A stretch of DNA of 64,000 nucleotides from Marsupella aquatica (GCA_973895155.1 OZ316895.1:18237880-18301879), one strand, 5' to 3'. Positions 2,440 to 64,000 are shown, counted from the first letter of the stretch. The notes: a model not told the origin generated them from the letters alone. Numbers and translations are program-made.

Positions 2440-2652
2440 GCATTTCTTAAGCCGTGAGATATGAAGTTAGGAAGCAGCGTAGGTAATGACTGAACCTACG
2501 CCAAGGGAGGAAAGAGCGATTCAATGGGAGAGAGCTCGTCTGTAGTAGCTCTCCGGGTGGCATGATACACAACGACTGAGAGGGGCAGAAAGAGCTAGTA
2601 GCTCTAAAATTGAGAGTGGCATCAAAGAAGAAATACCAGAAGAGGAGTCGGT

Positions 2653-3954
2653 ATGGAGAGTGAGTCCCCAACCGACATGGGGGAACCGGAGGCACGGCCA
2701 AAAGAGAGGCTAGGAACCAGACTGAGCCAAAGGTTGCGCATTCATTACAAGGCATTTCATGGGAGAGGAGATGAGGATCCAGACGAATGGTTGGATGACT
2801 TCGAGGGAACCGCTACAGCAAATGGAGAATCGGCCATCAAGATGCAAATTCTTCCCGGCCTATTCAAGGGTGAGGCTAGGCCCTGGTATAGAGCATTGGA
2901 TGTGGAATATCAAGCCATCTGGCATACCTTCAAATCACTATTTGTAAAGGAGTTTCGACCCATTGGAACCTCAGAGCTAGCAGTGTTGAAGTTGGGACGA
3001 CTTCGGTTCAATGAGAACAAATCCTTCAGGAAGTTCTTGCATTGACGCTTCCAAAAGCTGGTAAAACGTACAAAGATCAACAACTTCAATGGTTGGTGAA
3101 TGCTTTACCGCAGAAGATGATTTTTGCAATTAGGAAGGAGAACCCAGAGACTTTAGCCGAGGCAATTAGGGATATTCAATTGTACATTAATGCAGATATC
3201 ACAAGCCGGAAGAAACAACTCAAGTCTGAGAGTTCCTCATCGGAGGAAGGATCACCACATAAGAAAAAAGATAAGAAAAAGAAACATTCTAAGAAGTCAA
3301 GAAATGATAACTCAAGCTCGGATAGTGGAAGTAGCAAGAGTGAGTCGTCTTCTAGTTCTGAAGAAGAAAAATCCAGGAAAAAGAAGGGCAGAAGGAGGGG
3401 GAAGTTGAAAGTCAAGCTAGAGGCTAAAATGCCAGATAACATCATAGCTCTTACCGAGCAGCTTAAGGCTATAATATCAGAGGTAAAGCCAAAGAAGAAA
3501 GTAGTATTGGAAGATAGCTCTGTATGGTGTGCCTTATGTTATAAAACTGGACACCATAAAGATGCATGTCCTAAACTCACTACTAGTCATGTTCGGCATA
3601 TAGTTGAGGTCAGACCGTGTCACAGAGAAGTAGAGTACTTTCTAGGGGATGCCGCTGATAGTGTTTTTGGCATCAGTGAGACTGGAGCACGAGACCTATC
3701 CAACCGACCTGCATCTCTCTGGTCAAGATTAAGGAACAATCCGGGAGAGATGTATTCTCGGATTATTCAGAATCCATCAGTACCTCCTAGGCCAAATGTG
3801 CAAAGATTTGCGGCATGCTATAATTGTGGTCAACCTGGCCATTTTGCTAGAGGATGCTCGAATGCACGCAAACAAGGTGATGGACAACCAGCTCAGCTAT
3901 GTATGGGATGCCGCCAGGAGGGTCACATCCTAGGACAATGTCCTACTTGGTTGG
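2653..3954 (+). pseudogene. gag: Element A gag, N-terminal part (frameshifted), with three CCHC zinc knuckles
   Basis: Gag core FHGRGDEDPDEWLDDFE, a K/S-rich tract, and knuckles CALCYKTGHHKDAC, CYNCGQPGHFARGC and CMGCRQEGHILGQC. Cut at 3954 by a solo LTR. Confidence 0.85.
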
Positions 3955-17950: not shown

Positions 17951-19342
17951 TGTGGTATGGGTGTCCCTGCAATTTTTTCTGGAAACTTGTTTATTTTTAG
18001 CATATCACAAGATTTACTTACACTTTAGACACCTTCCGGCCAACATTTACTTGTTCTGGACACTTATAGAAATATTTGACATCTCCGGCTTTCCTGACGA
18101 TTCCTAGTGTACTTTGCCCGACGCTGTGACCAGCGCCCGTTTCTTTTACTCAAGACGCTGCGGAAGCGTCCAACCTCCTCATGACGCTTTTGGCAGTGCC
18201 CGACCGCCACCAAGACTCTATGAGGATTTCGACCGACGCTGTGGAAAGCGTCAGCTTCAACACACGACGCTGTGAGCAGCGTCCACCCTAGTATTGACGC
18301 TGTGAGCAGTGTGAGCAGCGTCCGTTGGTTTTACTTAAGACGCTTCTAGCAGCGTCCAGATTCTCCCGACGCTTCTAGCAGCGTCCGCTCAACACTTAGT
18401 TTTTGAAGTAGATTACTAGTAAAGTAGTATTCTACCACCCTTGTTGAAGTACTTATGCTGTGCTTCTCCCTTGTTTAGTTTTAAGCTTGGAAAGGCACGA
18501 CTGTTCTTACCTCCTCCATTTTAGGATTCCAGCACTTATAAGACAGAGTAGAATGCTCATTTGAAGTAGAGAGAAATAGAGTTAATACTGTATTCAGAAT
18601 TGAGTCTTCTGAATAGTTTTCTCCTCCTTCCATTGTAACAAGGCATGCTGTGAGTGTTTTGTATGGAAGTAAAGCTATATTGATTGAAGTTAAGATTGAA
18701 TTCAAGAGATTCCTGTGGTGATTGAATTCAGTTGCAGATTTCTGAAACTCGTATTGAATTCACTGCTAGGCTTGCTTGCAGAGTCGGGATTCGCTAGCCA
18801 ATTCAAGAATAGTTAATGATAAATGAGAAGTAAATTCTGATTCTCAGAGTAGTTAGTACTGTTGCTTTGATTCTGGAATATGGTTTAGAGTTTGACTGAA
18901 TTGCGTATCGCTGATGTCAAACCATGTTGACGGCATTTTAAATCATATCATTCATTTGCAATCAGAAAGCTTCTGCTTCATCAGATTGAGAATTCCATTA
19001 TCATTAACCTTTGTGTTTTGAAGAGTGAGATGGATGAATTATGAGATAGATTTCATGTCTATACTGAGCCCAAATCCTTTCTGAAGGAGTGGCAGTAGCA
19101 GCTTGTAGTCTCTAAATCCTTACTCATTTCTTCTCTAATTCATAAATCAGAAGTTCAGTTACTTTGTTGTTTGTTTATTCGATTTTTTTTTATTGAGAAG
19201 TGAAGTCAACATAGAGCTCAAGACTCTAAATCACTCGGAGTGATAAAAGTTATACAATTCATTCTGAAATCTGTTCTTAAAGGGATCGAAACCCTGGTTT
19301 TAGGTGAGGAGAGTCACTTTTGATACTTAGCACTATACGACA
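17951..19342 (+). repeat. Element B 5' LTR
   Basis: TGTGGTAT...ATACGACA; direct repeat of 29773-31164 with no difference noticed by eye. Confidence 0.96.
18120..18385. repeat. Cluster of about 8 spaced palindromes GACGCT-N5/6-AGCGTC in the B LTR (also 29942-30207)
   Basis: Examples: GACGCTGTGGAAAGCGTC at 18235, GACGCTGTGAGCAGCGTC at 18266, GACGCTTCTAGCAGCGTC at 18339 and 18368. Confidence 0.85.
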
Positions 19343-29772: not shown

Positions 29773-31164
29773 TGTGGTATGGGTGTCCCTGCAATTTTTT
29801 CTGGAAACTTGTTTATTTTTAGCATATCACAAGATTTACTTACACTTTAGACACCTTCCGGCCAACATTTACTTGTTCTGGACACTTATAGAAATATTTG
29901 ACATCTCCGGCTTTCCTGACGATTCCTAGTGTACTTTGCCCGACGCTGTGACCAGCGCCCGTTTCTTTTACTCAAGACGCTGCGGAAGCGTCCAACCTCC
30001 TCATGACGCTTTTGGCAGTGCCCGACCGCCACCAAGACTCTATGAGGATTTCGACCGACGCTGTGGAAAGCGTCAGCTTCAACACACGACGCTGTGAGCA
30101 GCGTCCACCCTAGTATTGACGCTGTGAGCAGTGTGAGCAGCGTCCGTTGGTTTTACTTAAGACGCTTCTAGCAGCGTCCAGATTCTCCCGACGCTTCTAG
30201 CAGCGTCCGCTCAACACTTAGTTTTTGAAGTAGATTACTAGTAAAGTAGTATTCTACCACCCTTGTTGAAGTACTTATGCTGTGCTTCTCCCTTGTTTAG
30301 TTTTAAGCTTGGAAAGGCACGACTGTTCTTACCTCCTCCATTTTAGGATTCCAGCACTTATAAGACAGAGTAGAATGCTCATTTGAAGTAGAGAGAAATA
30401 GAGTTAATACTGTATTCAGAATTGAGTCTTCTGAATAGTTTTCTCCTCCTTCCATTGTAACAAGGCATGCTGTGAGTGTTTTGTATGGAAGTAAAGCTAT
30501 ATTGATTGAAGTTAAGATTGAATTCAAGAGATTCCTGTGGTGATTGAATTCAGTTGCAGATTTCTGAAACTCGTATTGAATTCACTGCTAGGCTTGCTTG
30601 CAGAGTCGGGATTCGCTAGCCAATTCAAGAATAGTTAATGATAAATGAGAAGTAAATTCTGATTCTCAGAGTAGTTAGTACTGTTGCTTTGATTCTGGAA
30701 TATGGTTTAGAGTTTGACTGAATTGCGTATCGCTGATGTCAAACCATGTTGACGGCATTTTAAATCATATCATTCATTTGCAATCAGAAAGCTTCTGCTT
30801 CATCAGATTGAGAATTCCATTATCATTAACCTTTGTGTTTTGAAGAGTGAGATGGATGAATTATGAGATAGATTTCATGTCTATACTGAGCCCAAATCCT
30901 TTCTGAAGGAGTGGCAGTAGCAGCTTGTAGTCTCTAAATCCTTACTCATTTCTTCTCTAATTCATAAATCAGAAGTTCAGTTACTTTGTTGTTTGTTTAT
31001 TCGATTTTTTTTTATTGAGAAGTGAAGTCAACATAGAGCTCAAGACTCTAAATCACTCGGAGTGATAAAAGTTATACAATTCATTCTGAAATCTGTTCTT
31101 AAAGGGATCGAAACCCTGGTTTTAGGTGAGGAGAGTCACTTTTGATACTTAGCACTATACGACA
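29773..31164 (+). repeat. Element B 3' LTR
   Basis: Direct repeat of 17951-19342, followed by the TSD ACACG. Confidence 0.96.
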
Positions 31165-34382: not shown

Positions 34383-37300
34383 TGTGGTGCGTCCCATGGC
34401 TCCCTAAACCCAAGAAACCCCCCAGCTCAAGCCGATTCCCGCAGGTTTCGTGCTTGGCGAGGCCGTCTCCGCGGCTTAGCGGCATGGGACGTTGCTAACC
34501 TTCTACTACTACTATTAACATTTTACACACATATACTGGACAGATCCTTCATCGGGTCATGAGATACGTAGCCGGCCTAATATAGGCCTTCCCCTGTCTT
34601 CCCCTGTCTTCCCCTCCGTCTTGTTAGGTATGTTTGGATTCCGCCGCCGGAATGATCCCCAATAGGCTTGGTTAAGCCGCTAAGACCTCTCTCAGCTCGA
34701 CACATCCAACTCTCACTCCCCTGCTTACTTTCCTTCCTTCTGTTGATGTGGGCACTCTTCACACAAGTTAATGCGACACACAAATAGCAAAATGACTCAT
34801 TCTGACTGAGTCATACCATGCACTTGCCATACAAACAGTACATCTCATACACAAGTTCTGCGAACTAAGCCGTGAGGCCAACTCTATTCAGCTCTTAGGC
34901 ATGAGGAAACATGAATATACACAAGGGTCACTGTATGACTAACCGAGAGCTTCTCGTACTACTTGATCCCAGCCCGGCTGGTGCAAACTAAAAACTTGCT
35001 AAAGAAGAGGCCCTGAGCTCCCCGCTGCCCAGGTACTTATCCTGGTAGTGGATCCGCCATTCTTTGCATCGTAAGCCTAATCTACTTAACAGTAATCTAC
35101 TTGCCCGAATCTACCTATGTACAGCAAGGCAAGAGCACAAGTGTTGCTCCTACCAGTGGGACCGCAATCCCACTAAGCTAAGTGTCAGGGCCGCTCCTGG
35201 TTCTGATCCTAATCCTAAACGTGGAGATCCGTGCCCGCCCTGCCCACTCACGCCTCCTCCCTCCACGTCCGCCCTCCCTAAAAGGAACGGCGCCCTTGCA
35301 CCGTCACGACACCGGGGGTGGATCCTCAATGGACGCCCCCAACACTTCCTCCTCAGCCACTGCCGTTGGCCCGCCTACTGACAGATTACCTGCCCTTGAC
35401 CGAGTCAACTCTCCATCGGCCTGACTGGGTCCACCTTCGGCTTCAGCCTCGACAACTCCCACGGCTTCGGCTTCAGCCACCCCCACGGCTTCGGCTTCCC
35501 CTTCCCCTAGGGTAGTTGGATCCTTAGCCGTGACCCTGTCTGGGGTCGGTGCTGGGTCTACCTCCTTGATCACCACGGCCTGTGAAGTCGTATTACTCCT
35601 TGACCCTGAAGGTTTTCGCTTCTTCTTCGTTGGTGGCTCGGCAGCTGGTCCCTTCCCCTTCCCACTTACCTCCGGCACTGGTGCAGGTGGGGCGGCTTGT
35701 CCTTCGGCAATTACCACCCCTGGTAACTGGTTTGTCCCAACAGGAGATGGACCTGCTGCAGCTAAGCATTTAAATACTGCGGCTTGTTTCTTCAGCCGCT
35801 CTGTTTGGTTGTCGGCCCGCCGCTGTAGGTTCTCCATCTTCCTCGTGATTTCCTCCAACTCCTCTTGGGTTTCATCCAGGTCCTTACGTGCCCCCTCCAG
35901 CTCGTTTTTGGCCTCCTCCTGCTCCCTGTGGGCTTCCTCCAATTCCTTCTTCAAGGTAGCCTTCTCCTCCTGGGTTGCTCTTAGCTCCTTGTCGAGCTCT
36001 GCAATGATGACAGACTCCATCTGGTTCATCTTGGCGTAAGTCTGTTCGAGCATCTCGTCCTTCTCCCTTAGGTCGGCCTTGAAGCTGGCCGTCAGGGACG
36101 CAAGCTCCTGCTGCAGCGCCATAATCCCTTGATAGGATTTCCCTAACTTGACTTCCTTCTGCTCAAGGGCTCCGCGGATTTTCTCGAGCTCCCCTTTCAA
36201 CGCCCATTCCTTTCTTTGGGTCTCCGCCATGGCCCGGCTGTTGGTTGTTATGTGGGCCTCCTCTGTATTCTTCAGCTCTTGCTTCCACTTTTCCCTTTCT
36301 TTGATCGTGTCGGCCAACTCTTCCTGCGTCTGAGTCAGTTTATCCTTGATATTCTGATTATCAGCCTGCGCGGCGTCCAACTGCCCCTGCATGATGTTCA
36401 GCTCATGTCGTTTAATCCGCAGTTCATCTTGGGCTTTCTTGGCCGCCCTTAGATCTTCAATCTCGGCTCCCATCCTCCTAAGCCGCCGAATGACCTCGTC
36501 CTTCTTGCTTCTCTCTAAAGCCACCGCTTCTTCTAATTGGTGCTTCTCCAACTGCTCCCTATGGAAAAAGGGTCCTACCTCCAACTCCTCTCCAAAGATG
36601 CCGAGCGCAAGTTCCCCACACATCTCACCATACTCCATGGCTCTATTCTTAGCGTAGGTGGAGTAAGTAGAAGTGATCGGCATCGCCCATCGTGGCCTCT
36701 GCTCCCAAGCCGTCCTGCGGATCTCTTCAATCGTGGCTAGAGGTTTGCTTCCTTTTTCGGCTAGCCGCCTGATGTCCTCCGGCCAATCTCCTCCTGGTAA
36801 ATCCTTTTCCTTAGCCAGGGCGGCCTCTTCCTCCTGCTTGATTCGCTCCTGAAATTCCTGCACCGTCTGTTTTATGCCGTCGAAGCTCGGGGGAGCAACA
36901 TCTGGTGGGGGAGACTCAGGGCTACTCTGTTGGTTGGGGTCCCCTCGCACTACCCTTGGAAGTGTGGGGACAAACCGGCCATAGGTCCTTACTCCTGGAA
37001 CGTGATGGTCCGACCCATAGCCGGAATTATCATGGCTGCAGTCCTCCACTGCCTCCTCTACCTCTTGGATTTCCGGCTTCTCCCTCTCCTCTTCCTCGGT
37101 AGGAGCTTCAAGCAATTCTGCCTCAGATTCGGAGCTTGAGGTTCCCACGTACATTCGAACACCTGGCTTGGATTCCGGCCTGATTCTCTCCTTGTCTCCA
37201 GCAAAGGGGTTTTCTCTTGTGAGCCGGTGTAGGCCTACCTCTGTAGTAGTGTCCTGCATTGTTGCCGTTGCCGTTGTCGTTGCCGATGCCGATTTCTTTT

Positions 37301-39006
37301 CTTTCTCCAGTAGTTTCAGCAGACTCTGCATGCCTGGTTGCTGCATCGGCAAGTCTTCCTTCCTGGGCCTAAACACCTGCTCGATCGTAGGACTAACAGG
37401 TGGTTGAGGCTTCTCAGCCAACGGCCTCGGCGTTGGAGCTTCCTCGGGTGCCCTTACCTGCAGGGGAAGTACCGGGGCAAAAGTCTGACCTCTGGCATAC
37501 CAGCACAACAGCGGCATGTGATAGCCAAGCCGCGACACGCTCCCCATGCCGATTACCTGCTGCTCCTCCTTTAAGATCTTCTTCAATTGGTTGAGGAGGT
37601 ACCCGTTGTAGTCCCGGCTTGGGTCTGGCCTTTCTACCAGATAGACCTGTGCCTTGCCGATCTCTGCCCTCGGCAAGTTACAATGCATGGTCACCCGCAA
37701 GAAGTCGATCATCTCTCCTATGTGCGGGTTGGTGCAGGTGTTCCGGAAGAAGCCATTCTTCGTTGATGGCCCGGGGAACGACCGGAACTCCTTGTCAGGC
37801 AAGGTCTTCCTGGTATCAACTTTGGTCTTATTGCCCATCGGCAAGCCAAACACTTCGGCAATCACCTTGGGAGTAAGATAGAAATCCTTCCCATATATCC
37901 TCGTGCAATTGGTCTCGGGTTCCCATGACCCCACGAATTCTAATAGGTCTGACTCCGGTACCTCCGGCTTCAGCCATGGTAATCTTACAAAGGCCTCCAA
38001 GCCGGATCCGGCCATGAAGCCTTGGTACTTCTTGGTCTGCATGGCCGTAAAGCATGCATCCTCCTCCCGTGCAAAATGTAGTTGCACCTCCACCGGTAGG
38101 GTTGCCGCCCAGCCCTTCCAGGTGTCATCCCTGGTTGGAATGGCCTTGATGGGATCGACCTCCTCCTCTTCGGCTTCTCCCTGCCTCCTGCTCTGCTGCT
38201 CGGCTGGCTTCTTTGGTGCCGCCGACCTCGTTCTTTTTGCCGGGGTGGCTTCATCGTTGACGGCTCCCTTCCTCTTCATCTCTGCTGCCGTGGAGGTTTC
38301 TCCTAGCACCGTTGCCTGGGTCCACCTTTCCGTGCTACCCTTTAATTCCCAGTGTATGTCGTTGCAGTTCTTGATGGCCTCTCGGATGCCGACGACGCTG
38401 TCTTTGCAAAACAGAAGATCGTCGAGTTGATTGGAAGTAGGCGTCCACAGGAACTCGTCCTTGATGAGTTCGCCTCCTAAGAAAGCCGTCTTCTGCAGCT
38501 CCCACAATCGAGCGAGCTCCTGCCGTTCTCGAGCTGCCCTTTCTGACTCCTCGTCCTCGTAAGTCTTGATGTACTCAGTTGCCCGTTCGAACAGGCATCC
38601 CCAGAAATGTGCCGCTTGATTGACGTTGCTCATACCCTCCTTAGGTTGATCGTCGGTATCTACTCTCTCCCCGAGTGCTTGCCTAAGCAGCTGACAGTAG
38701 TTGGCCTCCCGTAGTCGTCTGCCTAGTTCGTGCTCGCAAATGAGCCACCATCTCCTGCAAGCGCTCCTTACCCCTCTCCTCTGCCGGTCCTTCTTCCCGT
38801 TGATCCTTCCTAGCCGCCGACGCTTAACGCGCCCTAACCCTAATCGGGTTTTCACCCTCAGCCTTACCTCCGGCCTCTGCCCGGGTTCCATGGTTGCCCC
38901 TAATTGTTTATATTTTCCTTGTTTTGTCACTATACTAAGGTGTTCCTAGGGTGCCTTCCTGCTTTACCCACTTAACCGGCCGAGTGATTCCTGTCTAGGC
39001 ATCACA
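34383..39006 (-). mobile_element. Family A solo LTR copy 3 (4624 bp)
   Basis: Termini TGTGGTGC...GCATCACA; 5-bp TSD AAGGC (34378-34382, 39007-39011); splits KILALR|LKPLL of the LINE-2 RT. Confidence 0.94.
35304..38891 (-). CDS. Intact LTR-encoded protein (about 1100-1200 aa depending on start): accessory-type domain, acidic linker, long coiled coil
   Basis: Uninterrupted ORF filling about three quarters of the LTR; ATGs at 38891 and 38633. LLEFVGSW...IYGKDFYLTPKVIAEVFGLP resembles plant-transposon accessory domains. Synonymous changes and in-frame indels occur between copies. Confidence 0.85.
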   Translation of the reverse strand: MEPGQRPEVRLRVKTRLGLGRVKRRRLGRINGKKDRQRRGVRSACRRWWLICEHELGRRLREANYCQLLRQALGERVDTDDQPKEGMSNVNQAAHFWGCLFERATEYIKTYEDEESERAARERQELARLWELQKTAFLGGELIKDEFLWTPTSNQLDDLLFCKDSVVGIREAIKNCNDIHWELKGSTERWTQATVLGETSTAAEMKRKGAVNDEATPAKRTRSAAPKKPAEQQSRRQGEAEEEEVDPIKAIPTRDDTWKGWAATLPVEVQLHFAREEDACFTAMQTKKYQGFMAGSGLEAFVRLPWLKPEVPESDLLEFVGSWEPETNCTRIYGKDFYLTPKVIAEVFGLPMGNKTKVDTRKTLPDKEFRSFPGPSTKNGFFRNTCTNPHIGEMIDFLRVTMHCNLPRAEIGKAQVYLVERPDPSRDYNGYLLNQLKKILKEEQQVIGMGSVSRLGYHMPLLCWYARGQTFAPVLPLQVRAPEEAPTPRPLAEKPQPPVSPTIEQVFRPRKEDLPMQQPGMQSLLKLLEKEKKSASATTTATATMQDTTTEVGLHRLTRENPFAGDKERIRPESKPGVRMYVGTSSSESEAELLEAPTEEEEREKPEIQEVEEAVEDCSHDNSGYGSDHHVPGVRTYGRFVPTLPRVVRGDPNQQSSPESPPPDVAPPSFDGIKQTVQEFQERIKQEEEAALAKEKDLPGGDWPEDIRRLAEKGSKPLATIEEIRRTAWEQRPRWAMPITSTYSTYAKNRAMEYGEMCGELALGIFGEELEVGPFFHREQLEKHQLEEAVALERSKKDEVIRRLRRMGAEIEDLRAAKKAQDELRIKRHELNIMQGQLDAAQADNQNIKDKLTQTQEELADTIKEREKWKQELKNTEEAHITTNSRAMAETQRKEWALKGELEKIRGALEQKEVKLGKSYQGIMALQQELASLTASFKADLREKDEMLEQTYAKMNQMESVIIAELDKELRATQEEKATLKKELEEAHREQEEAKNELEGARKDLDETQEELEEITRKMENLQRRADNQTERLKKQAAVFKCLAAAGPSPVGTNQLPGVVIAEGQAAPPAPVPEVSGKGKGPAAEPPTKKKRKPSGSRSNTTSQAVVIKEVDPAPTPDRVTAKDPTTLGEGEAEAVGVAEAEAVGVVEAEAEGGPSQADGELTRSRAGNLSVGGPTAVAEEEVLGASIEDPPPVS

Positions 39007-43153: not shown

Positions 43154-43767
43154 AGTTCAATGTTGCTTCAAAATAGGGAGCGCAAAGGATCCAAGGACCA
43201 TAACGAATGTCTGTGTTGAGACTACCAAGACCAGAGACTCCGCTACAGCATCGTCCTACCTCAAATGCTCAGAAGTTAGTCTGAATGCAATCTATCACAG
43301 CGCAAAAGGTGTCGAGAAAAAGCTCTAACGCTCCTGTATCCAATGAGACTGACGACGTATTTACCAAAAATCTTAAACTTGTGTAAACCCAGAACGCAAA
43401 TGTGAGATGCTCAAGCTCTCACCGCTCTCACCGCTCTTCTTCGCTCCTTCAGCTCGCTACCCTTTTTGCTTTTGTCTGGGATGAAAGTCCAATCAAAGAA
43501 TGCCATCTGTACTTGGGACCGTTGTTCGAATGGCTGGGTACATTGTATCGGTGTCTTAATACGAGGTTGAGATCGCTCGTTGGGGATAATTTAGTCCGTC
43601 TAATTGCTCAGACCTCGGACTGTACGAGTTTGTCATGTGCGTATGTGCATCCTTTATTGGTCCCGTACATTTTGAGACGTGATCGTCACAAGAACTGCAT
43701 GGCACGTATGACAGTGCTGGGTGGTCGAGTCGCTCTCCATGGCAACTTTTGGCTGGGTGATACGAGA

Positions 43768-44133
43768 ATGGGGGAGGCTGATGGTGGTCATTCTGAGTCC
43801 TCTCAGTCTTCGTTTGCTGGTTCAGTATACACCCGTCGCGTCACTCGATCGACTGCGACCCTGTCAACTTCCAAAGCTGAATCTGCACAGCCCTTCCCGA
43901 GGTCGAGGAGAGGGAGAATGGACCCTAAGGAGGTTTCCATGGGTGAAGTCAGTGACATAGGCTTATCGATGGACGAGGTAATATCAAAGCATGCATTGTC
44001 GTTTGGGAAGGATTTTCGAGGATTCGATAAGGAGCCACCTCAAATTCCTCTGTGTAGATTGCTCCCCATGGAGGTTGTTCGAACCTTACAGAAAGAAAGT
44101 GCATCGATCGAGAAGTTGAAAGAATCATTCCGG
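43768..44133 (+). pseudogene. Element C copy 2: N-terminus of the ParB-like gene, cut by element D
   Basis: GSVYTRRVTRSTA...SFGKDFRGFDKEPPQIPLCRLLPMEVVRTLQ matches 62126-62473. Confidence 0.8.
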
Positions 44134-44556: not shown

Positions 44557-45462
44557 CTCTCCTTTATTCAAAGATCTCTAAAGTTTAGAGATTACAAACA
44601 ATAATTTTATGTCCTTTGCAGTTTGGTCATTCTTCAGCTGGGGTTTCAGCCTCGGTTCAGATCAACTCAGGTCATTCAATTGGGTCAGGTTTGGCCAGTC
44701 GTGCTTTCAAGTTCCAATTCTAATGGGGTTGTCCTTTGGAATTAGTTTCTCCAGGATTCGGGGTTCATTCATGATTGCTTCCAGAGTTCCTCAAACTCAT
44801 CCTTGACTCTTTCTTTGAGTTAGGGATCTTTTTTATTTCATGTCTTTAAATTTCTCCATTTTTCACTTTCCTTATCCACTATAGTACAATTCAGTTGTCC
44901 TTGACTGAATAATTTGGATCTTTCTTTTCCTGCTTCTTGTTCTCTGCTGCCAATTTGCCTTGCTTCACCCAAAAAAAGCCAAAACCTCATTAACAACGTT
45001 GTTTCTTGAGTTACCCCTCTTTCGAGTTTAGCTTTCTTCAGCAGCCGAGCACCTCCGCAGCACCACAAAATCCATTACCCAACAATCCCTCTCTTCCCGT
45101 TCTGTCACTTCCGGTCCTACTTCTTCAGAATTCCTCACGTGCTTCCGCCTTCACCCGAAGTTTCCATTTCCAAATTCCAATTTGTTCGGCCACATCTCTC
45201 TTCTTCCCCACTCGAATTCCTATCGAAAGCTCTCATTTTTTTCCTGCTTCATTCCTTCACTTTCTAATCCCCACTTGTGAATCGCCCCTCCTTTTCATGT
45301 CACCTGGAGCCTCATTGCCCTTTTCATTCGAAAACGAGACCCACAGCGATCAACAACTTTCAGCTCCAAACGGCTGTCTTCCATTCGGCAGCACATCACT
45401 TTCTCAATTTCTTCCTAAATTTCACACGTCATGTAGTCAAAGATCAGTCGTTACTCTCACTT
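44557..45462 (-). repeat. Part of the element D 3' LTR shared with the 5' LTR remnant
   Basis: High-identity direct repeat of ~55357-56260. Confidence 0.88.
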
Positions 45463-52618: not shown

Positions 52619-55054
52619 CTAGTCAAAATCCTCAAATTTCCCTTCGTTCTTCTTCCCTTCCCGTAACTCTATACGATTTCTAGGATGGGCAGCTTGTACT
52701 GTTGGAAACTGAATCATCTTAGATCCATCTCTACTCCGGATCAAGGCCACATGCGTCCCATCGTCTAATACCTGTGTCGCCATCCTCATCTCAGTGATAA
52801 ATGGCTGCCCTAAAATCATCTACATGGGAAGACTCTCATGAACAAAAACATTCATTGGTTCCACAATGTCCCCAATTCAGAGCTTAACTCCGGGACAAGC
52901 TCCCCAAAAACTGTTCTTGTCCGCACTAATAGATCTAACTCCCCATCCACTGTGTCGATCTACTGCCCATTGTCCCTCCTCATAAATGCGCATCGAAATA
53001 ATATTTACTTCAGAACCTGAATCTAATAAAGCTCTCACAGGACTCTTAATTCTATCTAACTCCACCTCACATTCACTACACCCCCGTGCCCAATGCATTT
53101 TTCTGACATCCATGGCAATCGAGCACCAAGCTAAACCTCTCTCTCTCTCATCTGCCCTCATAACCTCCACCCCCACCTGCTTTTGACTCGAGGATTCTCC
53201 TTTCTCAAAGCCCTCTCGTTCCCCACTCACTTTACCCACAAATGGCATCACTCTATCTTCCCCTTCGTCCTCCGAGTCAAAACTCCCTTCTTCTGCCAAG
53301 GTACATGCCACCCCTTGCGGCCCTTCTTTTAGGATGCGTTTTCTCTTGACCTGCGTCAAGATAACATCTTGTACATCTCTCCTCATACACCCTATTACCT
53401 CCTTGTTTGTTAGACCTCTCACCTCTTGATTCCAAAATTTGGCACCAACCGCATTAAAGTCAACCTCCCATTCAATTTCCCTCCCTAATACCCATCCTGG
53501 TTTCTTCCCTCCTATCTTCCCTCTCCCCTTTTGCTCTACCCTAGAACTCATCCCTGGTTCTTCCCTCTTAATCTCCCCTGACTCTCCTTCTTTCTTTTCC
53601 CCCTCTTTACTACTAAATGATTCTCTCGAATCCCTTTGTTTCACCTCTACTATTACCTCGGAACTACCCTTCCCTTGCTGAATAGAGTTCACAAAAACTG
53701 GTGCTTTCCAACCAGTTTCACTCCGCAAATACTCAGCATATCTCTTCTCACTCACCTCATCAAAACTAGACCTGGTACCACCACTCGCCTCTACCCTATC
53801 TCGTTCAGCTACATAAACCCTAGGCTCATACATCATTGCCCCAACCATTGCCTTCCCTCTATGCTTTTCAACAAGCATCTTCATCCCTCCCTTCCCAAAG
53901 TTTAATGGAACCCCTTCCCCATCATCAAAGTATGCTAGTCTTTTCTTCCCTGGTTCCCCCACAAACTTGACCCATTGTTCTTTTAGGGCCTCCGTCAACT
54001 CCCTACACTCATTTCTGGTGTGATCCTTTGAATCACACCACATACACAAAGCATTTGGCCTCCTCTCAGCTGGTTCCCTTCTTGGAATCTCAGTTCTCTG
54101 AGACCTCTGCTCTATTACATGGGAGGTTAAAAGCCTTATCCCTTCAGCAATTTTCTCTAGGTCAGTCGTGCTCGACCCTTCCACCTGCACCCTCCTCTCA
54201 GTATCTTCTCTCCTCCCAACTACATCCCTGGTGACCTCTCTCTCACTCTCCCTCCTCCTTACCACCTCTCTTGTGGCCTCTCTGTCGTTCTCTCTTCTCC
54301 TCCTACGCTCATTTACTCTCATTACTGCCCTCTCGACCAGACTCCAATCCGCTGGTCCTTCCGCCCAAGTGGGTTTTAGTAGATCCATGGCATTTTCTAG
54401 TTCATCCCTAAGCTGCTCCCCTGCTGCTCTCAAAAACAGCTCTGACTTTTGGAGCTCAATGATTCTCACATCACGCCAAGGGAGCTGGCTCATCCTTCGA
54501 GTGAACTCTCGAAGTAATTGTTGCGGCTCAAGCCTCTTCTCTCTCTCATTAACCCAATCCAGGAAGGAAGTGTGAGTTTCCCTACTCGAATCCTCTAACT
54601 GAAATTCCTCCTTTGTTCGACACTCAAAGTCCCTCCAAGTCCTATCCTCTACTGACTTATCAACTAATACCTGAACTGACCCCTTTAAACTCATCTCAAC
54701 AACCGTGACAAACTTTCGGATCGCCACAACCTCATCCACCATTTGTATCTCGACTTGTGTCTTATACTCTTCTAAAAATCAGGTAACATCCCGCCCATCA
54801 AACCTACCTCTATTTGTGAGTACCGCTTGAAGGCATCTTGATGCCCTCATCTCCTGGTCTCTCTCCCTCCTTTCTACTGTTTCCCTCTCTCTCCTTTCAC
54901 GTTCACTAATCGCATCCTCTCTCTTCATTAGCTGCATGGCAGCCACCATCATCCTAATCATATCCTCCATAGTCTCTTCTTTTCTGAAAGCCTCAGAAAA
55001 ACTCTCTATATTAGGACCCGCGTCTGAATCCATGCACAAGTTGACAATCCTCAA
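52619..55054 (-). pseudogene. gag: Element D gag (CCHC) and protease
   Basis: GRFDGRDVT, CMWCDSKDHTRNEC, ALLDSGSEVNII, ILGQPF. Confidence 0.85.
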
Positions 55055-55356
55055 ACTGTGGTTTCACTCTCTCTTCCCTCGAAAGTTTGGTCACAACAAA
55101 TCAGTTGTTTCCAACCATTCATAGTTGATCAGCCTCTCAGCTCTTTGAGCTGCCACTGTCGAACTGCCTCTCAAGAGATTAAGAAACCTAGTTCATCCTC
55201 TATCAATCAATCAATCTCTCATCCAATCAATCATTCATATTAAGCAACCCTAATTATCTATTTTCATATTTAATTCCCTCGACCCATGGCTGCCCTTCTG
55301 CTCGCCTCTCTTAAGTTCTCAACCCTAAATGAACCTATGGTCCTCAACGATCGTTC

Positions 55357-56260
55357 CTCTCGTTTATTCAAAGATCTCTAAAGTTTAGAGATTACAAACA
55401 ATAATTTTATGTCCTTTGCAGTTTGGTCATTCTTCAGCTGGGGTTTCAGCCTCGGTTCAGATCAACTCAGGTCATTCAATTGGGTCAGGTTTGGCCAGTC
55501 GTGCTTTCAAGTTCCAATTCTAATGGGGTTGTCCTTTGGAATTAGTTTCTTCCAGGATTCGGGGTTCATTCATGATTGCTTCCAGAGTTCCTCAAACTCA
55601 TCCTTGACTCTTTCTTTGAGTTAGGGATCTTTTTTATTTCATGTCTTTAAATTTCTCCATTTTTCACTTTCCTTATCCACTATAGTACAATTCAGTTGTC
55701 CTTGACTGAATAATTTGGATCTTTCTTTTCCTGCTTCTTGTTCTCTGCTGCCAATTTGCCTTGCTTCACCCAAAAAAAGCCAAAACCTCATTAACAACGT
55801 CGTTTCTTGAGTTACCCCTCTTTCGAGTTTAGCTTTCTTCAGCAGCTGAGCACCTCCGCAGCACCACAAAATCCATTACCAACAATCCCTCTCTTCCCGT
55901 TCTATCACTTCCGGTCCTACTTCTTCAGAATTCCTCACGTGCTTCCGCCTTCACCCGAAGTTCCGTTTCCAAATTCCAATTTGTTCGGCCACATCTCTCT
56001 TCTTCCCCACTCGAATTCCTATCGAAAGCTCTCATTTTTTCCTGCTTCATTCCTTCACTTTCTAATCCCCACCTGTGAATCGCCTCTCCTTTTCATGTCA
56101 CTTGGAGCCTCATTGCCCTTTTCATTCGAAAATGAGACCCACAGCGATCAACAACTTTCAGCTCCAAACGGCTATCTTCCATTTGGCAGCACATCACTTT
56201 CTCAATTTCTTCCTAAATTTCACACGTCATGTAGTCAAAGATCAGTCGTTACTCTCACTT
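55357..56260 (-). repeat. Element D 5' LTR remnant: PBS-proximal end deleted, other side cut by element C
   Basis: Homology to the 3' LTR begins at CTCTC near 55357 and stops after CTCTCACTT at 56260. Confidence 0.85.
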
Positions 56261-58634
56261 GGGGTATTTACAAACGACAGGAACCAGGAAACAGTAACTA
56301 TTTGCTGTTACTGTTACAAGGAGAAATGGAAAAAACAACATGGGATTGAGCTCCATTATTTGGTCAAGAAGTTAAAAAAACACCATCAATAAATCCCATT
56401 TTCAGTCATTTTCAATACCACCATCCAATTGTGAAGGAAAGTAGGGGCCATTAGAATAAAGGTGTTGCCAAAAACCGGTGATGGCCAGCGCACAACGCTA
56501 GTGTGCCGGCAGGGAAGGGCCAAAATTTAGGTATTCATAAAATAATGAAAAAGATAGAGATTCTACGTAACGTCAATCGAGAAGAGAACAGTAAACTTAA
56601 CGGCCATTAGAAAAAGGCGTTGCCAAAACATGCGGATATTAGCAACACCCAGCGCTAGTATGCTGGAAGAGATTTCCGTCACATCAATCGAGAAGTGAAC
56701 ACAGGAAACTCAATTTGAAGCATTTCCAACAAAGAGAGGCAATGGCAGACGTTGAATATTTTTAGTGATGGGCACTACATTAAATGTTGGACCTCAAGAA
56801 ATCAATGTCAGCGCCTAAACACGGAACACAATGACCATAGGCAACGCTCGGCGCTAGCTCAAATCTAGGAATCAATGAATGACCATGAAAGAACAAGAGA
56901 GCCGATCCAAAAGTGCATTCCTTACTTCCAAAATTGGTCAAAACATATAACCGGTATTACACCATCCGCAGATCATCTTCAAAGCAACCCATGGCATAAC
57001 ATGAACATAAGCAACGCTCGGCGCTAGCTTAAATCTAGCTATCTTAAATGTAAACTAAAACTGGACATCTGTTACTAAAAGCACCCCCACCACGAGCACT
57101 AGAATCTGCCAAAGCCCGCCGAAGCCCGCCCTGGCTCGTATGTGCTTTATCTCGACCTGAGCCGCACATAACAGGGCCGCTGATCCAAAATGGGCCAAAG
57201 ATGTCGCCGGAAATACATGAACTTTGAATCACCCATAGAAGAAATCCCACGGTCCAAGACGAACAAAAGCAGCGCTCGGTGCTAGCTTAAATGGCAAGCC
57301 TATGGCCACTGAAGCTTGTGTCACTAAAACCATCTTCATCGTGAATAACTTTAGCTTTGTGATTGGCAGTCGTCGTCAATGCCCGCCCTGGCACATCTGT
57401 GGTTTTGCTTGAAACCTAGACCCCTGAGCCGCACATAAGAAGAGGAGGGGCACCAAAACTCCAAACTCTGATTCTCGGGGTCTGGATCATTTGTATCTAG
57501 GAAGTCAACACGTCCCAGTCACTCTTGTACTCGTCGCTCAATAGGCTGAATACCATCAGCAGGAATGACAGAATGAAACAAAAACCGATCAACAACTGCG
57601 AGCGGAGTGTCCCGGTCATTAATCCAAGGTAAGTTCCTCTCCCTGGGACTAATCGCCTCATCATAAGGAAGAGCAAAATGATTCCGGAAGGTTGAGGTCT
57701 TGCTGGATGTGTCACCATGAACGGACTTGAAAGAGCTAAAGTGACTCTCGTCCGGTTGAACTCTGGAAGGAGCGAAGAAGGCAAGCATCTCCTCCAAAGA
57801 CATGATCTCCTTCTTCTCCATTTGGTGGGCACTGTTAAACGCAATCGAGGCTAATGACAAGACCGGTGTTGTTGAAATGACTCGACTTCGAGAGAGGTTG
57901 TGTCTGAAATAACTTGCAAGAGTGACCCAATGGAGAGTTTAGGTTCGGAGATCAGCAAAAATGTATCACAAAAAGGTTCAACGAAAAAAGGACCGTTGAG
58001 AAAGAGATGACTGTTCCGGTAGCGACAAAATATGCGGGGCCAAGGAACGGACGGAGGATTCAAAATTCGCAATTAGACAAATAGACGTTTAGGGAGCGCC
58101 CGACGCTAGTAAGGGAAATGAGGAATTTAATCCATTTTATTATCAATGTAATGTAAACAAATCATATCTAATATAATAAATACATGTATTAAGATAACAG
58201 CGCCCGGCGCTGGTAAAATCTAAGCCGCAAAAACGCTTTAAGAATTGGACGATTCCGATTCGGAGCTCTGTGACCTCTCGATAGAGACTACCTCATCATC
58301 TACATACTTGCTCCTACAAACGTCATCTACATAAGGATTTCGGACAAATTTTCTATCAACTCCTCTCCGTAGGCGAAGACCTTTGTTTTCCCAACAAAGA
58401 GTCCTTTGATTGTCTTCCATTCTTGCAGCATTCTCAACGTAAGAGGGTAAAACAAATGGTTTCTCCGGAGTGACAATTTCAAAACGAGCTACTTTTCTTC
58501 TGAGATTGAAGCGTCTTCTCGTATTTCATTCGGACCTGGGTGAGAACAGAAGTTCGTCAACCGATTGTATGAATGGATATCACAAAAGCATGAAGGAACT
58601 GGAAAGGAGAAAGAAGCTTACGAGTTTCAGAACA

Positions 58635-61600
58635 TTATTGGGAAGAGTCATCGCTGTCACTCTGGCCAGCGGATTGTTCCTGACCCTTCCCCTCAGGTGT
58701 GCCATCCTCATCTTCGTCTGCTGTACCACCACTTGACTCATCGTCAGAGTCAAAATTGAGTACAGAACGGAGCTTGTTCCTCTTTTTCTTTTCGGGTGGC
58801 TGAATTGGGGGTGGCAAAGTTTCAACTTCCTTTGGAGAAAGTAGATCTAAGAACACCTTGGAACCAGTCTCAACAAAATCTTTCCTATTCTCCACTCCAA
58901 TTACAAACCTCCCAGAATAGTCTCTAGCTACAAAAGAGCTACTCGACCCCACTGTCCAATCCATGAAAATATCCCTAGGACGAGTGATGAGCTCAATCAC
59001 AGATTGCATGAATCCAACCGACAAACGGGCATTTCTAGCAAATTCCATCTCAGGTGTTGGATCGACTTTGAGAGAGGGAAGTCCAATTAAATTTGTTATT
59101 GAGGGATCTTCTGTGGCAGACAGAGGTCTAAACCTTGAGTCTTTTGGCACCTTCCCTTTTTCAGACACTCGAGAGAAGACGTCCAGCCTCAGCGTGAAGA
59201 TCTATAATATAACCCAAGCAAGGTATGTCAATGGATGCATTCGTAGACATTTTTTTAACGGCAAACCAGATGTCACGATGAGAAATTTACCTGTCGATCA
59301 GTCTTCGGCGCGTACATTGGAACTGACATGACAACATTGTGTGACGAGATGCAATGAAACTTCTTTGAATCTTGACAAGCCAATATAACCTGAGACATCG
59401 GATCGTACTCCTCGTTATGTAAAATGGCCAGCATTCCGTCATCAGATAAAAATGGATCCATTCCACGAAAGAAAGATGTGGCCAAAGTGTGGTCAGGGAC
59501 ATTCCATTTAGGAACTTTTTTGTCTAGCAGAGATGGTTTAAGTCCTGTCGGAAGGTAGATAAAACCCGCGTGGACCCCAAATGATCTCTCCTTTCCACCA
59601 TGCACAATGCCCTTCTCTCGAAAGCCAGACTTCATGAGATCCTTTCCCCACTTCTCTACACCATTCACCCAGTCAGGCTTCTCCCCTTTGTTAAACATTG
59701 AGTCGTAGAATTCTGAGATGCTAGATTCAACAAGGCAATGCCTTGAAAGTCTACTCTTGAAGTCCCCAACTTCGTGTTGAAGACCTACAGCAGCAGCACT
59801 TTCTCGAGAGGAAGATCCACCTTCAATGGTCCTTTTTCTCTTCTTCCTTGTACTGGTCGCATCCACCGGAGCGATCGCCTTCCCTTTGTCGGTGGGAGTA
59901 ATTGGATCGGATGGTGCTCCGGTATTGGCTTCAGAAGCCTCTGGGGTGGCATCTATCTTTGTATCTCCGCTCCCCACGGCGTCCAACTTTCTCCTTGTTC
60001 AAATGGATGCCAACGTGATATCCGTCAATATAGAGACAACGACAATGCTAACGCCCAACGTTGGCCAAACTATCATAAGACTTGGCCTTAAATATACACC
60101 TTTTCGAGTAATAAATACCAATTCAGTTTCTAAAAAATTGACTCTCATAACAGCGCCTGGCGCTAACAATGTAACAGATATTGAATGTCAGAGCAGCGCC
60201 GTGCGCTAACAATGTGACATATATTGAATTCCATACCAGCATCGGGCGCTAACCAAAGGAAACAAATTATACTTACGTTTTTTCCCAGATCTTGTTGATT
60301 CACTTGGGGCCGCAGTATCTGCTTTTGCTTTGGCGCGAGGCTTCCTGCTTCGGTCAACATGAACAATTGTTGTCTCGCATATTGTTTGCAATTCTGTTGT
60401 GGATTGATCCACATCATCCAGAAGCCCCTGCTTCATGTTAGAAACAACATTGACTGGGATCTGGGACTTAGACAGCTTATGGAAAGCATCCTTTTCTCTG
60501 TGATCAAAGGGCGAGTCCCATCTATCTGTATCTAGGTACCATGGACAATGGGTTCTCTCCCATTCACTCAAAGGTCTTGCTGGGAAAATTCCCTCGGCAG
60601 GATACATAGAATACAATTCAGCTAAAGAATTACTCTCCGGTATGACAGTCCACTTGAGGAAGGCGGCGGGATACGCCCAGAAGTAATCAGGTTTGGTAGC
60701 CTCCATGTGGATGTAAAAACGGTAGAGATACCGTTTTGCTTGCTTTTGGTTCTTCAAAGAGTAATCCTCTTTGTCAGGATACTTCGAGGGCCACATTGTA
60801 TTAAAAAACTTACCCTTGACAGAGTCACCGTATTTCCTAAAATCATTCGTGACTATGTCAATGAGAGATTCAAATGATTCACATGCCCAATCTTGTAAAC
60901 GATTCACGGGAATGGTTTGTTGGACCTCTCGTAAAGCACATTGCAACATCCCCACCGCAATCCCTTCTACATTATTCCATGTAATCCAAGTGTGACACCA
61001 CTGTTTTACTGGATCATCATTGACGCTATTCGGATGGAAGAATTGTCTCTGGAGCTCTGGATTGCAATGTGCTACAAGCAAAGTACTTTGTAGCTTGGCG
61101 TCAAGAGTCGAGTAAAAAGCCTGGCCCGGTCCATGGTACACAACACGGTATCTGGCTTCTTCTCCCGCTTATTCCTCTCCGTGACAGCATACATTTCTGC
61201 GCACGTAGATAGAAAGTCCTCAAACTCTGGACTCAACAAAGGAGTGATTTTCGAGGTCTTAACTGCCCATTCCTTGGTTGCTTCCTTCATCATAACAGCA
61301 TGCCTTCTGGAAACCTCCTCGACCGACCAAGGGGTACCGAGGGCCGCAGCGGACTCCATGTCAATCTTGAACTGGTTCGAATACAACTTAATCTTATCCT
61401 GACATAGAATGTACTAAAGAGCCTCCTGAGGCATCTTCTTTGTGTACCAGGATCCTTTTCGCGTCTTCATCCTGATATGCTCAAACTTCTTGTAATTTGC
61501 AGGGTCGATGAGCTTACTATAGTACTCCAGGTCGTGCATCAAGATCCGCTTAATTCGATCGGCGTCTAGGATCTAGGAGGGTTCCACAACTGCTTGTCCT

Positions 61601-62473
61601 AGCCTGAAATAAAAGAACAAAATGAGAACATATAAGCAGCGCCGGGCGCTCGCAAAACATGGCCTCGGAAAGTTATGCTAGAAAGAATAAACAATTCACA
61701 ATGACTCACGAAGTTATGCACAAAAGAGTATCTTACTAGTTAACGGTGTGCATAGCCACTTTGATTTCTATCAGCGAACCCTTGTCACCATTGAAAACAA
61801 TACAAAGCACACGCAAGTGGTACTTTGGGTTTTCGAGACTCTCTTGAGTGACAAGAGTCCACGAGTAAAGCCTATGGTTCCCGTCAAAAATTGAGAACAT
61901 TTTGTCCTTCAAAACCAGAAAATCTGGGTCGGCAGCACATTCTTCCTCGAGTTTCTCATTCTCAGATGTCCATATTGGATCCCAACTCTCACAAATTTCT
62001 TGAGTACAAGTGAGAAGCGCTCCCTCAACATTGGTAGGCTGAACGTAAAACCTCATTCCAATCGAAGAATTGTATCCCATGCTACGGAAAGAGTCTTTTA
62101 GCTTGTCGATGGAAGAACTGTCTTTCTATAGAGTTCGGACAACCTCCATATGCACCAATCGACATAGTGGAATTCGTGGAGGCTCTTTGTCAAACCCTCT
62201 GAAATCCTTCCCAAATGACATGACATGTTTCGAAATAAGATCCGTCTCGGAAAACGAAACATCTTGAATCGCAAATGTGTCAAGATTCTCCATCTTCTTT
62301 CTCGCTGGTTTGGCAAACGAAATACTTGAGATTGGAACAAGCGATGCGGTGGACCTCGTTACTCGACGCGTATACACTGAACCAGAGAATGAAGACTCAG
62401 AAGACTCGCAATACCCACGATCCTGATCCCCAACCACACTATACACCCTCGACAAGGAGGGGATTGCATCCAT
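58635..62473 (-). pseudogene. Four-exon gene: ParB/Srx-like N-domain, helical domain, linker, and beta-class N4/N6 DNA-methyltransferase-like C-domain; carries nonsense changes and a frameshift
   Basis: Exons approx. 62473-61737, 61603-60277, ~59995-59291 and 59201-58635, with GT-AG introns (acceptor of intron 2 uncertain). Motifs FSIFDGNHRL; GFIYLPTG...PKWN...FLSDDGMLAI; VIELITRPRDIFMDWTVGSSSSFVA...GRFVIGVE. Confidence 0.7.
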
Positions 62474-62789
62474 TGTCTTTACGATGAAAGGTGTATGAAC
62501 GGAATCCTCACGACTGATTACCAGTTCTCTGTACCATATTAACAGTTGGGTCCGTATTATATCCTATCAATGAGCGTTATTCCCCTCTTTGTAATCGGTT
62601 GGAGAGACGTTACTCATTGCGAATGACGAGATTCAATTTTATTTATCCGTGACAGAAAGCGACAATTTAGAAATTGCGATAAGTATTAATGTGAATTACG
62701 CTAAAATGTTGTCGTGGTCATCATGCTAAACATTAGTTACCGTTAAATGTTACCGTTGTCTCAGCACCTTTCAGACAAACATGCAATGC

Positions 62790-63550
62790 CAACGTCGGGC
62801 GCTAACGAATAAGAGACTACCAAATTCAAGAACTTATTGGTGAACAAATGCTAGCGCCCGGCGCTAGCCATTTGAATAATTTCATTAACATTCTTTTTTA
62901 GTAACAGATATTGTCAACAAACTTCCAAATGTACCTGTTTCACCCGTAGTAACTAAACTTTACTTGATATTATGATATTAAGTATATTGTATCAATACTA
63001 GCGCCTGGCGCTAGTAACAATTTATTGTATTTGAGCTTAAAAATGTTTGTGATGCAATATTTTGAAAAAACATTGCATCAATATTTTGTGTGTGATTATG
63101 CTAGCGCCAGGCGCTAGTCACAAGACTTTTCAAATTATGTCATTGTTATTCCAATGGCTTTTAGGTAGCGCCCGACGCTAATGCAATGGACGAGTATAAC
63201 CACCGTGACAGCAAATAGTAAATAGATTTGCTGTTATGAGCAAATTTTTTGCTCGTACGAGCAAAAATTTACTCATATGAGGCTTTCAATTACTCATAGC
63301 AGAAAATCTGTTTACTCATACGAGAAACTATTTACTTGTACAAGTTTTATAGGTTATTCAAAGTTCAAAAAAATGGCTCGATGTTAAAAAATAACAACCA
63401 TATAAGCGCTCTCTGAAATGCTAACATAATTGGGCCCACCATTCAATGATAATAAACGGGCAATATAAAGGTCATTATAAGAAGACGCGCTTTATTTAAC
63501 AATCAATATATTTGCTATCTGTTTCAAATTTTGGCTAGCGCCAGGCGCTA
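62790..63550. repeat. Intergenic cluster of TAGCGCCNGGCGCTA palindromes
   Basis: Copies at 62790, 62850 (19-bp), 62996 (21-bp), 63101, 63166 and 63536. Confidence 0.9.
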
Positions 63551-63649
63551 CCAACAAACAACACATTTTTCTAGATAAGAAACGGGTACATCTTCTGCCC
63601 GTTAGAAAAGACAAATGCCACTTAAAGTTGTTGAACGGCACCAAATTGA

Positions 63650-64000
63650 CTACATGTCCGTTCCATTTTGTCGATCAAGCAGGTAACGGACTTCGCCCAA
63701 TGTCATATCTGGTTGACTAGATAGTGTCGAATCGTGAAGACTCAACTTTAACACAGTCCTGAATACCCAATATAGATGTTTGCAAGGCATGTAAGGTTTC
63801 CTATAAATGTGCCTCCGATAGAAATCCTCACATGAACAGCAAGGGAAACAACAAATCTGCACCCAATAAGAGGCAGCATTCCTCTCATGTTCATGTGTTC
63901 TGATACAATACTGCTTCCCCCACGCATTCCCACTCGTGACATCTCTCTCGCATATGAGCCTCATTACTTCTGTTTTGGATGCTTCGATCTTCTTGTAAAG
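63650..64000 (-). CDS. C-terminus of a SWIM zinc-finger protein, open to the window edge
   Basis: YWVQI...CSCEDF...PCKHLYWVF fits the SWIM CxC-xn-CxH pattern. Confidence 0.75.
   Translation of the reverse strand, partial: LYKKIEASKTEVMRLICERDVTSGNAWGKQYCIRTHEHERNAASYWVQICCFPCCSCEDFYRRHIYRKPYMPCKHLYWVFRTVLKLSLHDSTLSSQPDMTLGEVRYLLDRQNGTDM

Follow-up and report, generated by a model that had tools for sequence, protein, structure and literature searches.

Among the closest described systems to the one considered here is that of the Ectocarpus transposon Sola1-1_Ec32, which carries an accessory protein with a ParB-like and an N4C/N6A methyltransferase domain (PMC12477816). In the Plavaka elements of Bostrychia and other red algae, the ParB-like gene PAG3 adjoins tandem arrays of inverted repeats, and self-binding has been proposed (10.1101/2025.02.11.637652); the same report calls VANDAL the only proven case of self-action by a transposon. 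There, the VANC protein binds family-specific motifs in non-coding VANDAL DNA and acts against silencing in Arabidopsis (PMC5735166). Fungal transposons carry TET/JBP enzymes (PMC12730594), and ParB-linked eukaryotic methylases have been listed, none of them from land plants in the accessible part of that list (PMC4738411). The subject of this report is an element in a 64,000 nucleotide stretch of Marsupella aquatica DNA, the whole of which is here called the window. The element occupies positions 56261-64000, reaching the right edge of the window, and carries a gene for a ParB-like/methyltransferase fusion protein together with dispersed palindromes. Because the pairing of these two domains, and the idea of self-binding, have already been put forward for algal transposons, this is not the new system that a first-pass annotation of the sequence had suggested as a candidate. 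It is a known kind of system in a new lineage, distinguished in two ways: its changed catalytic motif is maintained by selection, and its palindromes, though placed at homologous positions, are specific to each lineage. No land-plant report of such a system, or of palindromes differing between lineages, surfaced in literature listings, subscription journals excepted.

The comparison with Sola1 is by description only and sets a brown alga against a land plant. The Ectocarpus protein has the same two domains (1104 amino acids (aa), against about 1,200 here), is borne by a DNA transposon, as the present one probably is, and has the same proposed role, that of binding and modifying its own element. 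The Sola1 termini are AACCG..CGGTT, against GGGGTATT here, and the available text of the Sola1 report mentions neither an altered catalytic motif nor dispersed palindromes, both of which are present in the Marsupella element. Plavaka, as described, has both kinds of domain in its PAG2/PAG3 cassette, in which a PF01555 methylase accompanies the ParB-like gene and the repeat arrays. However, its ParB is fused to a 2-oxoglutarate (2OG) oxygenase and its methylase to SET, in separate genes, whereas here one protein holds ParB and the methylase fold. Its arrays adjoin the gene; those of the present element are dispersed over the introns and between the genes. VANDAL shares short motifs in introns, intergenic and terminal DNA that are often tandemly amplified and differ between related families, but the VANC motifs are reported as non-palindromic 9-mers in one orientation (PMC5735166), and no VANC-type Pfam domain was matched in the window exons or their homologues. 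The bacterial ParB/KorB proteins and their parS sites share the N-terminal fold, the G-x-x-R motif and palindromic sites. Phages, too, have ParB-methylase fusions. The differences from ParABS are that no helix-turn-helix was matched, that no ParA was seen in the part of the element lying within the window, and that the gene is nuclear and contains introns. MpDN4MT1 (10.1101/2021.02.12.428880) and N4CMT (PMC10406627) are, as here, instances of a bacterial-type beta-class fold in a eukaryote, but their active site reads SPPY, whereas the present family is carried on an element and has neither this motif nor DPPY; a ParB domain is not mentioned in the accessible text on MpDN4MT1.

We put at roughly 0.45 the probability that the accessory protein binds the palindromes of its own element and works by binding, not by methyl transfer. 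On this reading, the protein would dimerise on its site, which has two-fold symmetry, and its putatively nucleotide-binding ParB domain would gate loading or spreading. In bacterial ParB clamps, it is nucleotide that gates loading or spreading. With sites packed into its introns, its intergenic stretches and its subterminal DNA, the element would be marked as self; such marking may sustain its transcription or bring it together for transposition, in the manner of VANC on VANDAL. The methyltransferase fold of this subfamily retains its S-adenosylmethionine (SAM) motifs without the catalytic Asp and the stacking Tyr, and would serve as a module for binding DNA or modified bases.

The fusion gene can be drawn as five exons on the minus strand, about 1,200 codons in all, with borders taken from GT-AG signals and homologues. 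Its parts, and the other intervals that hold palindromes, are as follows.

61737..62473, minus strand: exon 1, low-complexity N-terminus and ParB/Srx-fold domain, with DGNHR at 61885-61871; start codon guessed
62128 and the first splice junction, minus strand: lesions of exon 1, stops in the window copy
61604..61736, minus strand: intron 1, with one palindrome (61638), at a position common across the family
60277..61603, minus strand: exon 2, all-helical central region, interrupted in the window copy by two stops (61575, 61416) and, at 61111, by a gap of 7 bases
59996..60276, minus strand: intron 2, with palindromes at 60152, 60195 and 60238 at 43-bp spacing and a decayed fourth at 60050
59291..59995, minus strand: exon 3, a linker plus the catalytic half of the methyltransferase fold, whose motif IV position reads Y-L-P-T-G (Tyr codon 59557-59555)
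58639..59201, minus strand: exon 4, SAM-binding half, with motif I at about 58961 (DWTVGS) and motif II (GVE)
58241..58535, minus strand: probable exon 5, C-terminal tail ending near RNPYVDD, with a TGA at 58528
56487..57284, no strand: subterminal non-coding DNA with five palindromes (56487, 56644, 56843, 57013, 57271)
58095..58212, no strand: DNA between the fusion gene and the third open reading frame (ORF3), with two palindromes
62791..63550, no strand: intergenic DNA with six palindromes (62791, 62853, 63000, 63103, 63167, 63537)

The gene is multi-copy and contains introns, as first proposed. Besides the five-exon structure, there is a paralogue of about 65% identity at 10776-12515, a fragment at 43981-44132 and thousands of matching contigs from other copies. 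The position of intron 1 is the one at which many homologous ORFs stop, at an identical residue, and the intron is also present in related loci L013 and L043. The motifs FDGNHRL, FIYLPTG, LSDDGML, IELITRPRDIFMDWTVGS and GRFVIGVE lie in this order on the minus strand; contigs of other copies read DWTVGSG at motif I (58943), and exon 5 resembles the C-terminus of the homologue P0020 in a pairwise comparison (E=1e-4). The window copy is broken by several stops, a frameshift and damaged splice sites (near 59996 and at donor 58638). Contigs of other copies show the intact state at 61415, 61111, 58638 (a GT donor) and, in ORF3, 57521, and the remaining lesion positions are intact in homologues. An intact copy would make a protein of roughly 1,200 aa. 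In 191 bases around motif IV, third positions account for 29 of the 40 differences shown (10 further ones are not listed; p=5e-7), and 29 of the 40 listed are synonymous. Since most listed differences are synonymous, the catalytic half of the family was under purifying selection.

Exon 1, searched against 1.84 billion representatives, matched 204 clusters at E<=0.001; of 30 clusters looked up, the named ones belong to the liverwort Riccia sorocarpa or to Adiantum ferns. The Riccia protein P0154 (R1sor_027256, 1207 aa) has the whole ParB-like and methyltransferase architecture in a single gene model. Its residues 144-774 match window exons 1-2 by tblastn, with the window exons collinear, and the methyltransferase halves of the two proteins align by motif. 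There is thus a single protein of about 1,100-1,200 aa with both domains, as in the Ectocarpus Sola1 type. Of 27 matches to the methyltransferase profile, 25 are R. sorocarpa genes, dispersed over contigs of 8 sizes. A word-indexed search with exon 2 found nothing, a false negative given the homologues found with exon 1.

The N-terminus was modelled on 583 residues of another Riccia homologue, P0035 (90 sequences; predicted local distance difference test score (pLDDT) 84). In a VIA search with the model, the CTP-binding domain of KorB came first (Z 8.2, root mean square deviation 2.6, 95 residues aligned), and the rows for residues 2-177 had PadC (7.5), pNOB8 ParB (6.7) and Srx (6.1) further down. 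The top ten Foldseek rows were all ParB or Noc, at E>0.3; no match reached E<=0.001 in PDB or in BFVD, and among the BFVD matches was a phage 'DNA methylase' of 479 aa at probability 0.99 and E 0.33. GNHR is invariant in 29 of 29 sequences, as are V-R and the terminal N. Because the methods agree and GNHR is invariant, the N-terminus is assigned, on the modelled Riccia homologues, to the ParB/Srx fold with G-x-x-R, in keeping with the first-pass annotation. Pfam, PHROGs and PDB sequence searches found no ParB domain at threshold, the strongest sequence hint being a ParB PHROG at E 0.23 for the paralogue, and we take GNHR to be equally near Srx/kinase-type members and ParB. The central 400 residues are helical in the homologue model, which was over the advised size, and gave generic helix matches only.

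For the methyltransferase, the model was that of the Riccia homologue P0155 (273 aa, 29 sequences, mean pLDDT 54). Foldseek returned CcrM at E 3.2e-9, followed by M1.HpyAVI, MboIIa, BceJIV and RsrI, and both halves match CcrM by profile. Exon 4 matched Pfam N6_N4_Mtase at E=0.002, below cut-off, and DpnA-type structures at E=0.001; Atlas matches of exon 3 to methyltransferase clusters (0.84-0.87) are leads only. The profile and structure matches bear out the earlier assignment: the modelled fold is that of a beta-class amino-methyltransferase, Rossmann-type, with motif IV before motif I. In the distant relatives L008 (3136-3504) and P0126, WRGxxE(K/R) precedes motif I; it is absent from the Riccia and window proteins.

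The motif-IV-like FIYLPTG that had been pointed out is present at its position but lacks the catalytic Asp. In CcrM and N4CMT, as described (PMC10406627), motif IV engages the target base in two ways: its first residue bonds to the amino group, and its Tyr stacks on the base. The window protein and the homologue P0177 read Y-L-P-T(-G), aligned to D-L-P-T-G of Riccia homologues. Relatives from liverworts, ferns and metagenomes have D-(L/M/V/F/I)-P-(S/T/F/I/E), or a variant of it, at motif IV: DIPE in L008, DLPT in L027, and DLPS, DMPT, DVPF and DFPI in others. The Asp is kept in 21 of the 22 motif-IV matches among homologue proteins, and the PPY form occurs in none of the 22. Neither the (D/N/S)PP(Y/F/W) of catalytic beta-class enzymes nor SPPY was found. 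No change at the Tyr codon (59557) is listed among copies in four sequencing runs. A 6-base deletion as the source of the missing Asp was considered and rejected, there being no indel in the copies and an ungapped alignment with P0177. Because motif IV is without the catalytic Asp and stacking Tyr in the YLPT subfamily, methyl transfer is unlikely there, and because it is non-PPY throughout, methyl transfer is doubtful for the family, as far as these sequences can tell. The suggestion that the protein modifies element DNA therefore finds no support in motif IV, which is YLPT here and D-x-P-(non-Tyr) in all relatives seen.

It could still be supposed that, its unusual motif IV notwithstanding, the protein works as an amino-methyltransferase, and that the element is marked by the N4-methylcytosine (4mC) or N6-methyladenine (6mA) deposited in or near the palindromes. 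The beta-class motif order and fold, the retained SAM motifs and the frequent retention of the Asp are in its favour; moreover, unusual strand-4 motifs are reported in other eukaryotic clades (PMC4738411) and the same activity has been predicted for the Ectocarpus protein (PMC12477816). We nevertheless think it improbable, given that the Asp or Ser and the Tyr of (D/S)PPY are described as contacting and stacking the target base (PMC10406627), that the window protein, the contigs of other copies and P0177 have Tyr for the Asp and Thr for the Tyr, and that PPY is absent from every homologue matched.

The palindromes of the element have the consensus AGCGCC-N-GGCGCT as a 13-bp core, with 17 sites at <=3 mismatches and 15 at <=2. 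None of the 17 lies in the defined coding intervals, which make up 4654 of the 7740 bases, so that the first count of about 17 non-coding copies holds. Beyond the element and the paralogue, there are 10 matches to the core, every one at 3 mismatches. The longer form TAGCGCCNGGCGCTA is matched 17 times in the window when up to 3 mismatches are allowed. The expectation is 0.90, and 0 of 100 shuffles reach 17; of the 17, 15 are in 56261-64000 and two in the paralogue introns (11318, 12760). That paralogue, although only about 65% identical, keeps a palindrome in both sampled introns, with a conserved island in intron 1. In viral contigs, the 17-mer gave 3 scattered single matches only. The element had no Rfam match, and an RNA-hairpin role for the palindromes is unlikely, given their 1-base centre. 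The observed/expected CG ratio of the element with palindromes masked is 0.76, against 0.56-0.70 in six comparison regions; this milder CG depletion is too weak and too confounded to be used.

Other lineages have other palindromes. The best 80 of 159 metagenome loci with a relative were taken, and a quick tree of 88 rows, from which high-scoring segment pairs under 100 aa were excluded, places L013 as sister to the window's two copies (SH-aLRT 97). Intron 1 of L013 has AAGCCC-NN-GGGCTT ten times and the window motif not once at 1 mismatch; conversely, the L013 motif is absent from the window element. In several further loci, the non-coding DNA repeats a palindrome of its own: TCTCGG-NN-CCGAGA (up to 15 copies), GTGCCT-N4-AGGCAC (12), TTGGCG-N4-CGCCAA (7), TTCGGCGCCGAA (6) and ACTAAT-N4-ATTAGT (22). 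At least four copies of one palindrome are present in 11 of 36 related loci (1.7-8 kb). Among controls, this holds for 2 of 22 pieces of the window, which come from a single pair of long terminal repeats (LTRs), and for 0 of 14 far-flank pieces. Among tandem-array units near relatives, 18 of 68 contain a perfect palindrome with arms of at least 6, against 4.0 expected. Thus, different lineages use different palindromes at a homologous intron position. The motif types cluster on the tree, as kinship alone would have them do. The proposed tie between palindromes and gene family is supported by the paralogue introns, the related loci and the lineage-specific motifs.

A number of observations weigh against binding of the palindromes by the fusion protein. 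The ParB match is modest, with a best Foldseek E of 0.34 and a Z of 8.2 that is near the library background. The central region of the homologue model gave no match to a helix-turn-helix, nor to any other known DNA-binding fold. In bacterial ParB, parS is read by a helix-turn-helix domain. No such palindrome array is present in 25 of the 36 related loci, many of them short or decayed, and the loci share kinship, so that the counts are not independent, while the motif labels were chosen post hoc. Deviations from the window core are C>T or G>A in 17 of 19 cases, and decay by C>T is the pattern of methylated DNA. No pair of terminal inverted repeats was seen in the related metagenome loci, where it was sought in the long ones, which are decayed, and no second terminus or target-site duplication was found within the window or the related loci. 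Beside the gene, tblastn found no homologue of a transposase, of the SWIM ORF described below or of ORF3 in the 80 metagenome loci, and a Pfam scan of 68 of 313 listed ORFs (18 loci) found no neighbouring transposase. Finally, palindrome arrays are not exclusive to the ParB-like gene, because the window holds another one, in a gypsy LTR: the LTR pair 17951-19342 and 29773-31164 is 100% identical over 1392 bases, and each member has GACGCT-N4-AGCGTC six times within about 260 bases.

The array in this unrelated LTR lends itself to the explanation that the palindromes are sites for host transcription factors, or by-products of tandem duplication, and that the gene is unrelated cargo. The occurrence of palindromes in tandem units in many relatives fits too, since tandem units would multiply any motif. 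Even so, chance is a poor account of the excess of palindromes in such units, the window sites are mostly dispersed with unlike flanks, a site persists in the diverged introns of the 65% paralogue, and sister lineages have different motifs in the same intron; we would give this explanation little credence. The half-site of the gypsy LTR palindrome resembles that of the element palindrome, in the opposite arrangement.

The want of a matched DNA-reading domain in the fusion protein raises a different alternative, in which the palindromes are sites for a different product of the element, be it the transposase, the SWIM protein or ORF3, and the fusion protein is a non-specific chromatin or nucleotide helper. 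The element has at least two further ORFs, any co-inherited protein would track lineage-specific motifs, and the AtMu1 transposase is reported to activate cognate copies sequence-specifically on its own (10.64898/2026.08.24.746577). Yet several lineages have the sites within the introns of the ParB gene and in its flanks, not only near the termini, and the red-algal inverted-repeat arrays are described as adjoining the ParB-like PAG3 across Plavaka families (10.1101/2025.02.11.637652). Binding by another protein is unlikely in our estimation, though it is the strongest of the alternatives.

The mobility of the element, which the first-pass annotation had also proposed, is seen at its left end. 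The remaining features are these.

56261..56298, no strand: left terminus, starting GGGGTATTTAC, inside the right-hand LTR of a Ty3/gypsy-like element
57351..57938, minus strand: third ORF, about 190 aa, with a TGA at 57521 in the window copy
63653..64000, minus strand: 3' end of the SWIM ORF, which runs off the window and has a SWIM zinc finger at its C-terminus
10757-12800, plus strand: second gene copy, more decayed, truncated at both ends, with a palindrome in both remaining introns
43760-44133, plus strand: third copy, a 5' fragment of the gene whose end lies a little to the left of a truncated LTR (start 44557)

Contigs of the four sequencing runs were aligned to 55000-64000, where 2260, 2046, 3082 and 135 matched. 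The left end is sharp, with contigs first matching at 56261 (14 in run X2 and 24 in run X3) and a flank agreement of 0.37-0.40. Positions 56261-56298 are common to 33-42 contigs per run, which diverge together thereafter. Unlike flanks at 56261, together with the shared stretch of about 38 bases, show a mobile-element end at many insertion sites; the shared stretch would be common to a second end or a subfamily. The host LTR copies 55357-56260 and 44557-45462 are 98.3% identical, and the latter continues past the junction position without the element. Contig cover persists up to 64000, so the other end lies beyond the window. Because the host LTRs are 1.7% apart and yet the inserted copy bears about nine lesions, it was, the comparison suggests, dead before moving and mobilised in trans. 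The element is a dead copy of a multi-copy land-plant family, likely a cut-and-paste DNA transposon. Two further repeats within the intergenic DNA may be mentioned: a 43-base imperfect palindrome at 63235-63277, within a region (63200-63340) where TTTACTCATA-like words also recur, and a stretch of 18 bases, 63202-63219, that matches subterminal 56297-56314 in inverted orientation.

The SWIM ORF noted upstream at the outset is supported by its top Atlas match (0.93), to a cluster with PF04434 on 29% of its members; Pfam on the ORF itself gave no SWIM match, and no homologues were found in a word-indexed search. It is a candidate transposase or accessory gene. Of the marks of Mutator/VANDAL elements, namely a SWIM-bearing DDE transposase, long terminal inverted repeats and a 9-bp target-site duplication, a SWIM finger is supported, in an ORF cut at the edge, and the shared terminal stretch is about 38 bp. 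Other copies' contigs bridge 62791..63550 to both adjacent genes. In run X5, 63729-64000 is deeply covered and the rest of the element barely, which suggests that the SWIM ORF is also part of a different family in the organism of that run. The third ORF has no Pfam family at threshold and no match in related loci. The window as a whole is repeat-rich eukaryotic DNA with LINE (long interspersed nuclear element) and Ty3/gypsy-like frames and GT-AG introns; 447-8618 and 34383-39006 hold several related copies of a further repeat (81-94% identity), whose long ORFs are coiled-coil-like.

By analogy, these elements could represent a nuclear ParB-parS-like transposon system of liverworts, ferns and other plants, in which lineage-own palindromes would be loading sites for a nucleotide-gated spreading clamp and a catalytically dead methylase fold would read the DNA or shield it from silencing; protein and site would co-evolve into many orthogonal pairs. 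So broad a scheme is rather doubtful. More immediately, the altered catalytic motif is a caution against annotating such genes as sources of 4mC or 6mA in plants. The family offers near full-length gene models in a cultivable liverwort genus together with lineage-specific candidate sites, and because the candidate sites differ between sister lineages, a swap experiment is possible. If the protein does bind its own palindromes, plant transposons would have a second, unrelated route to sequence-specific self-recognition, and a ParB-type protein would be active on nuclear chromatin.

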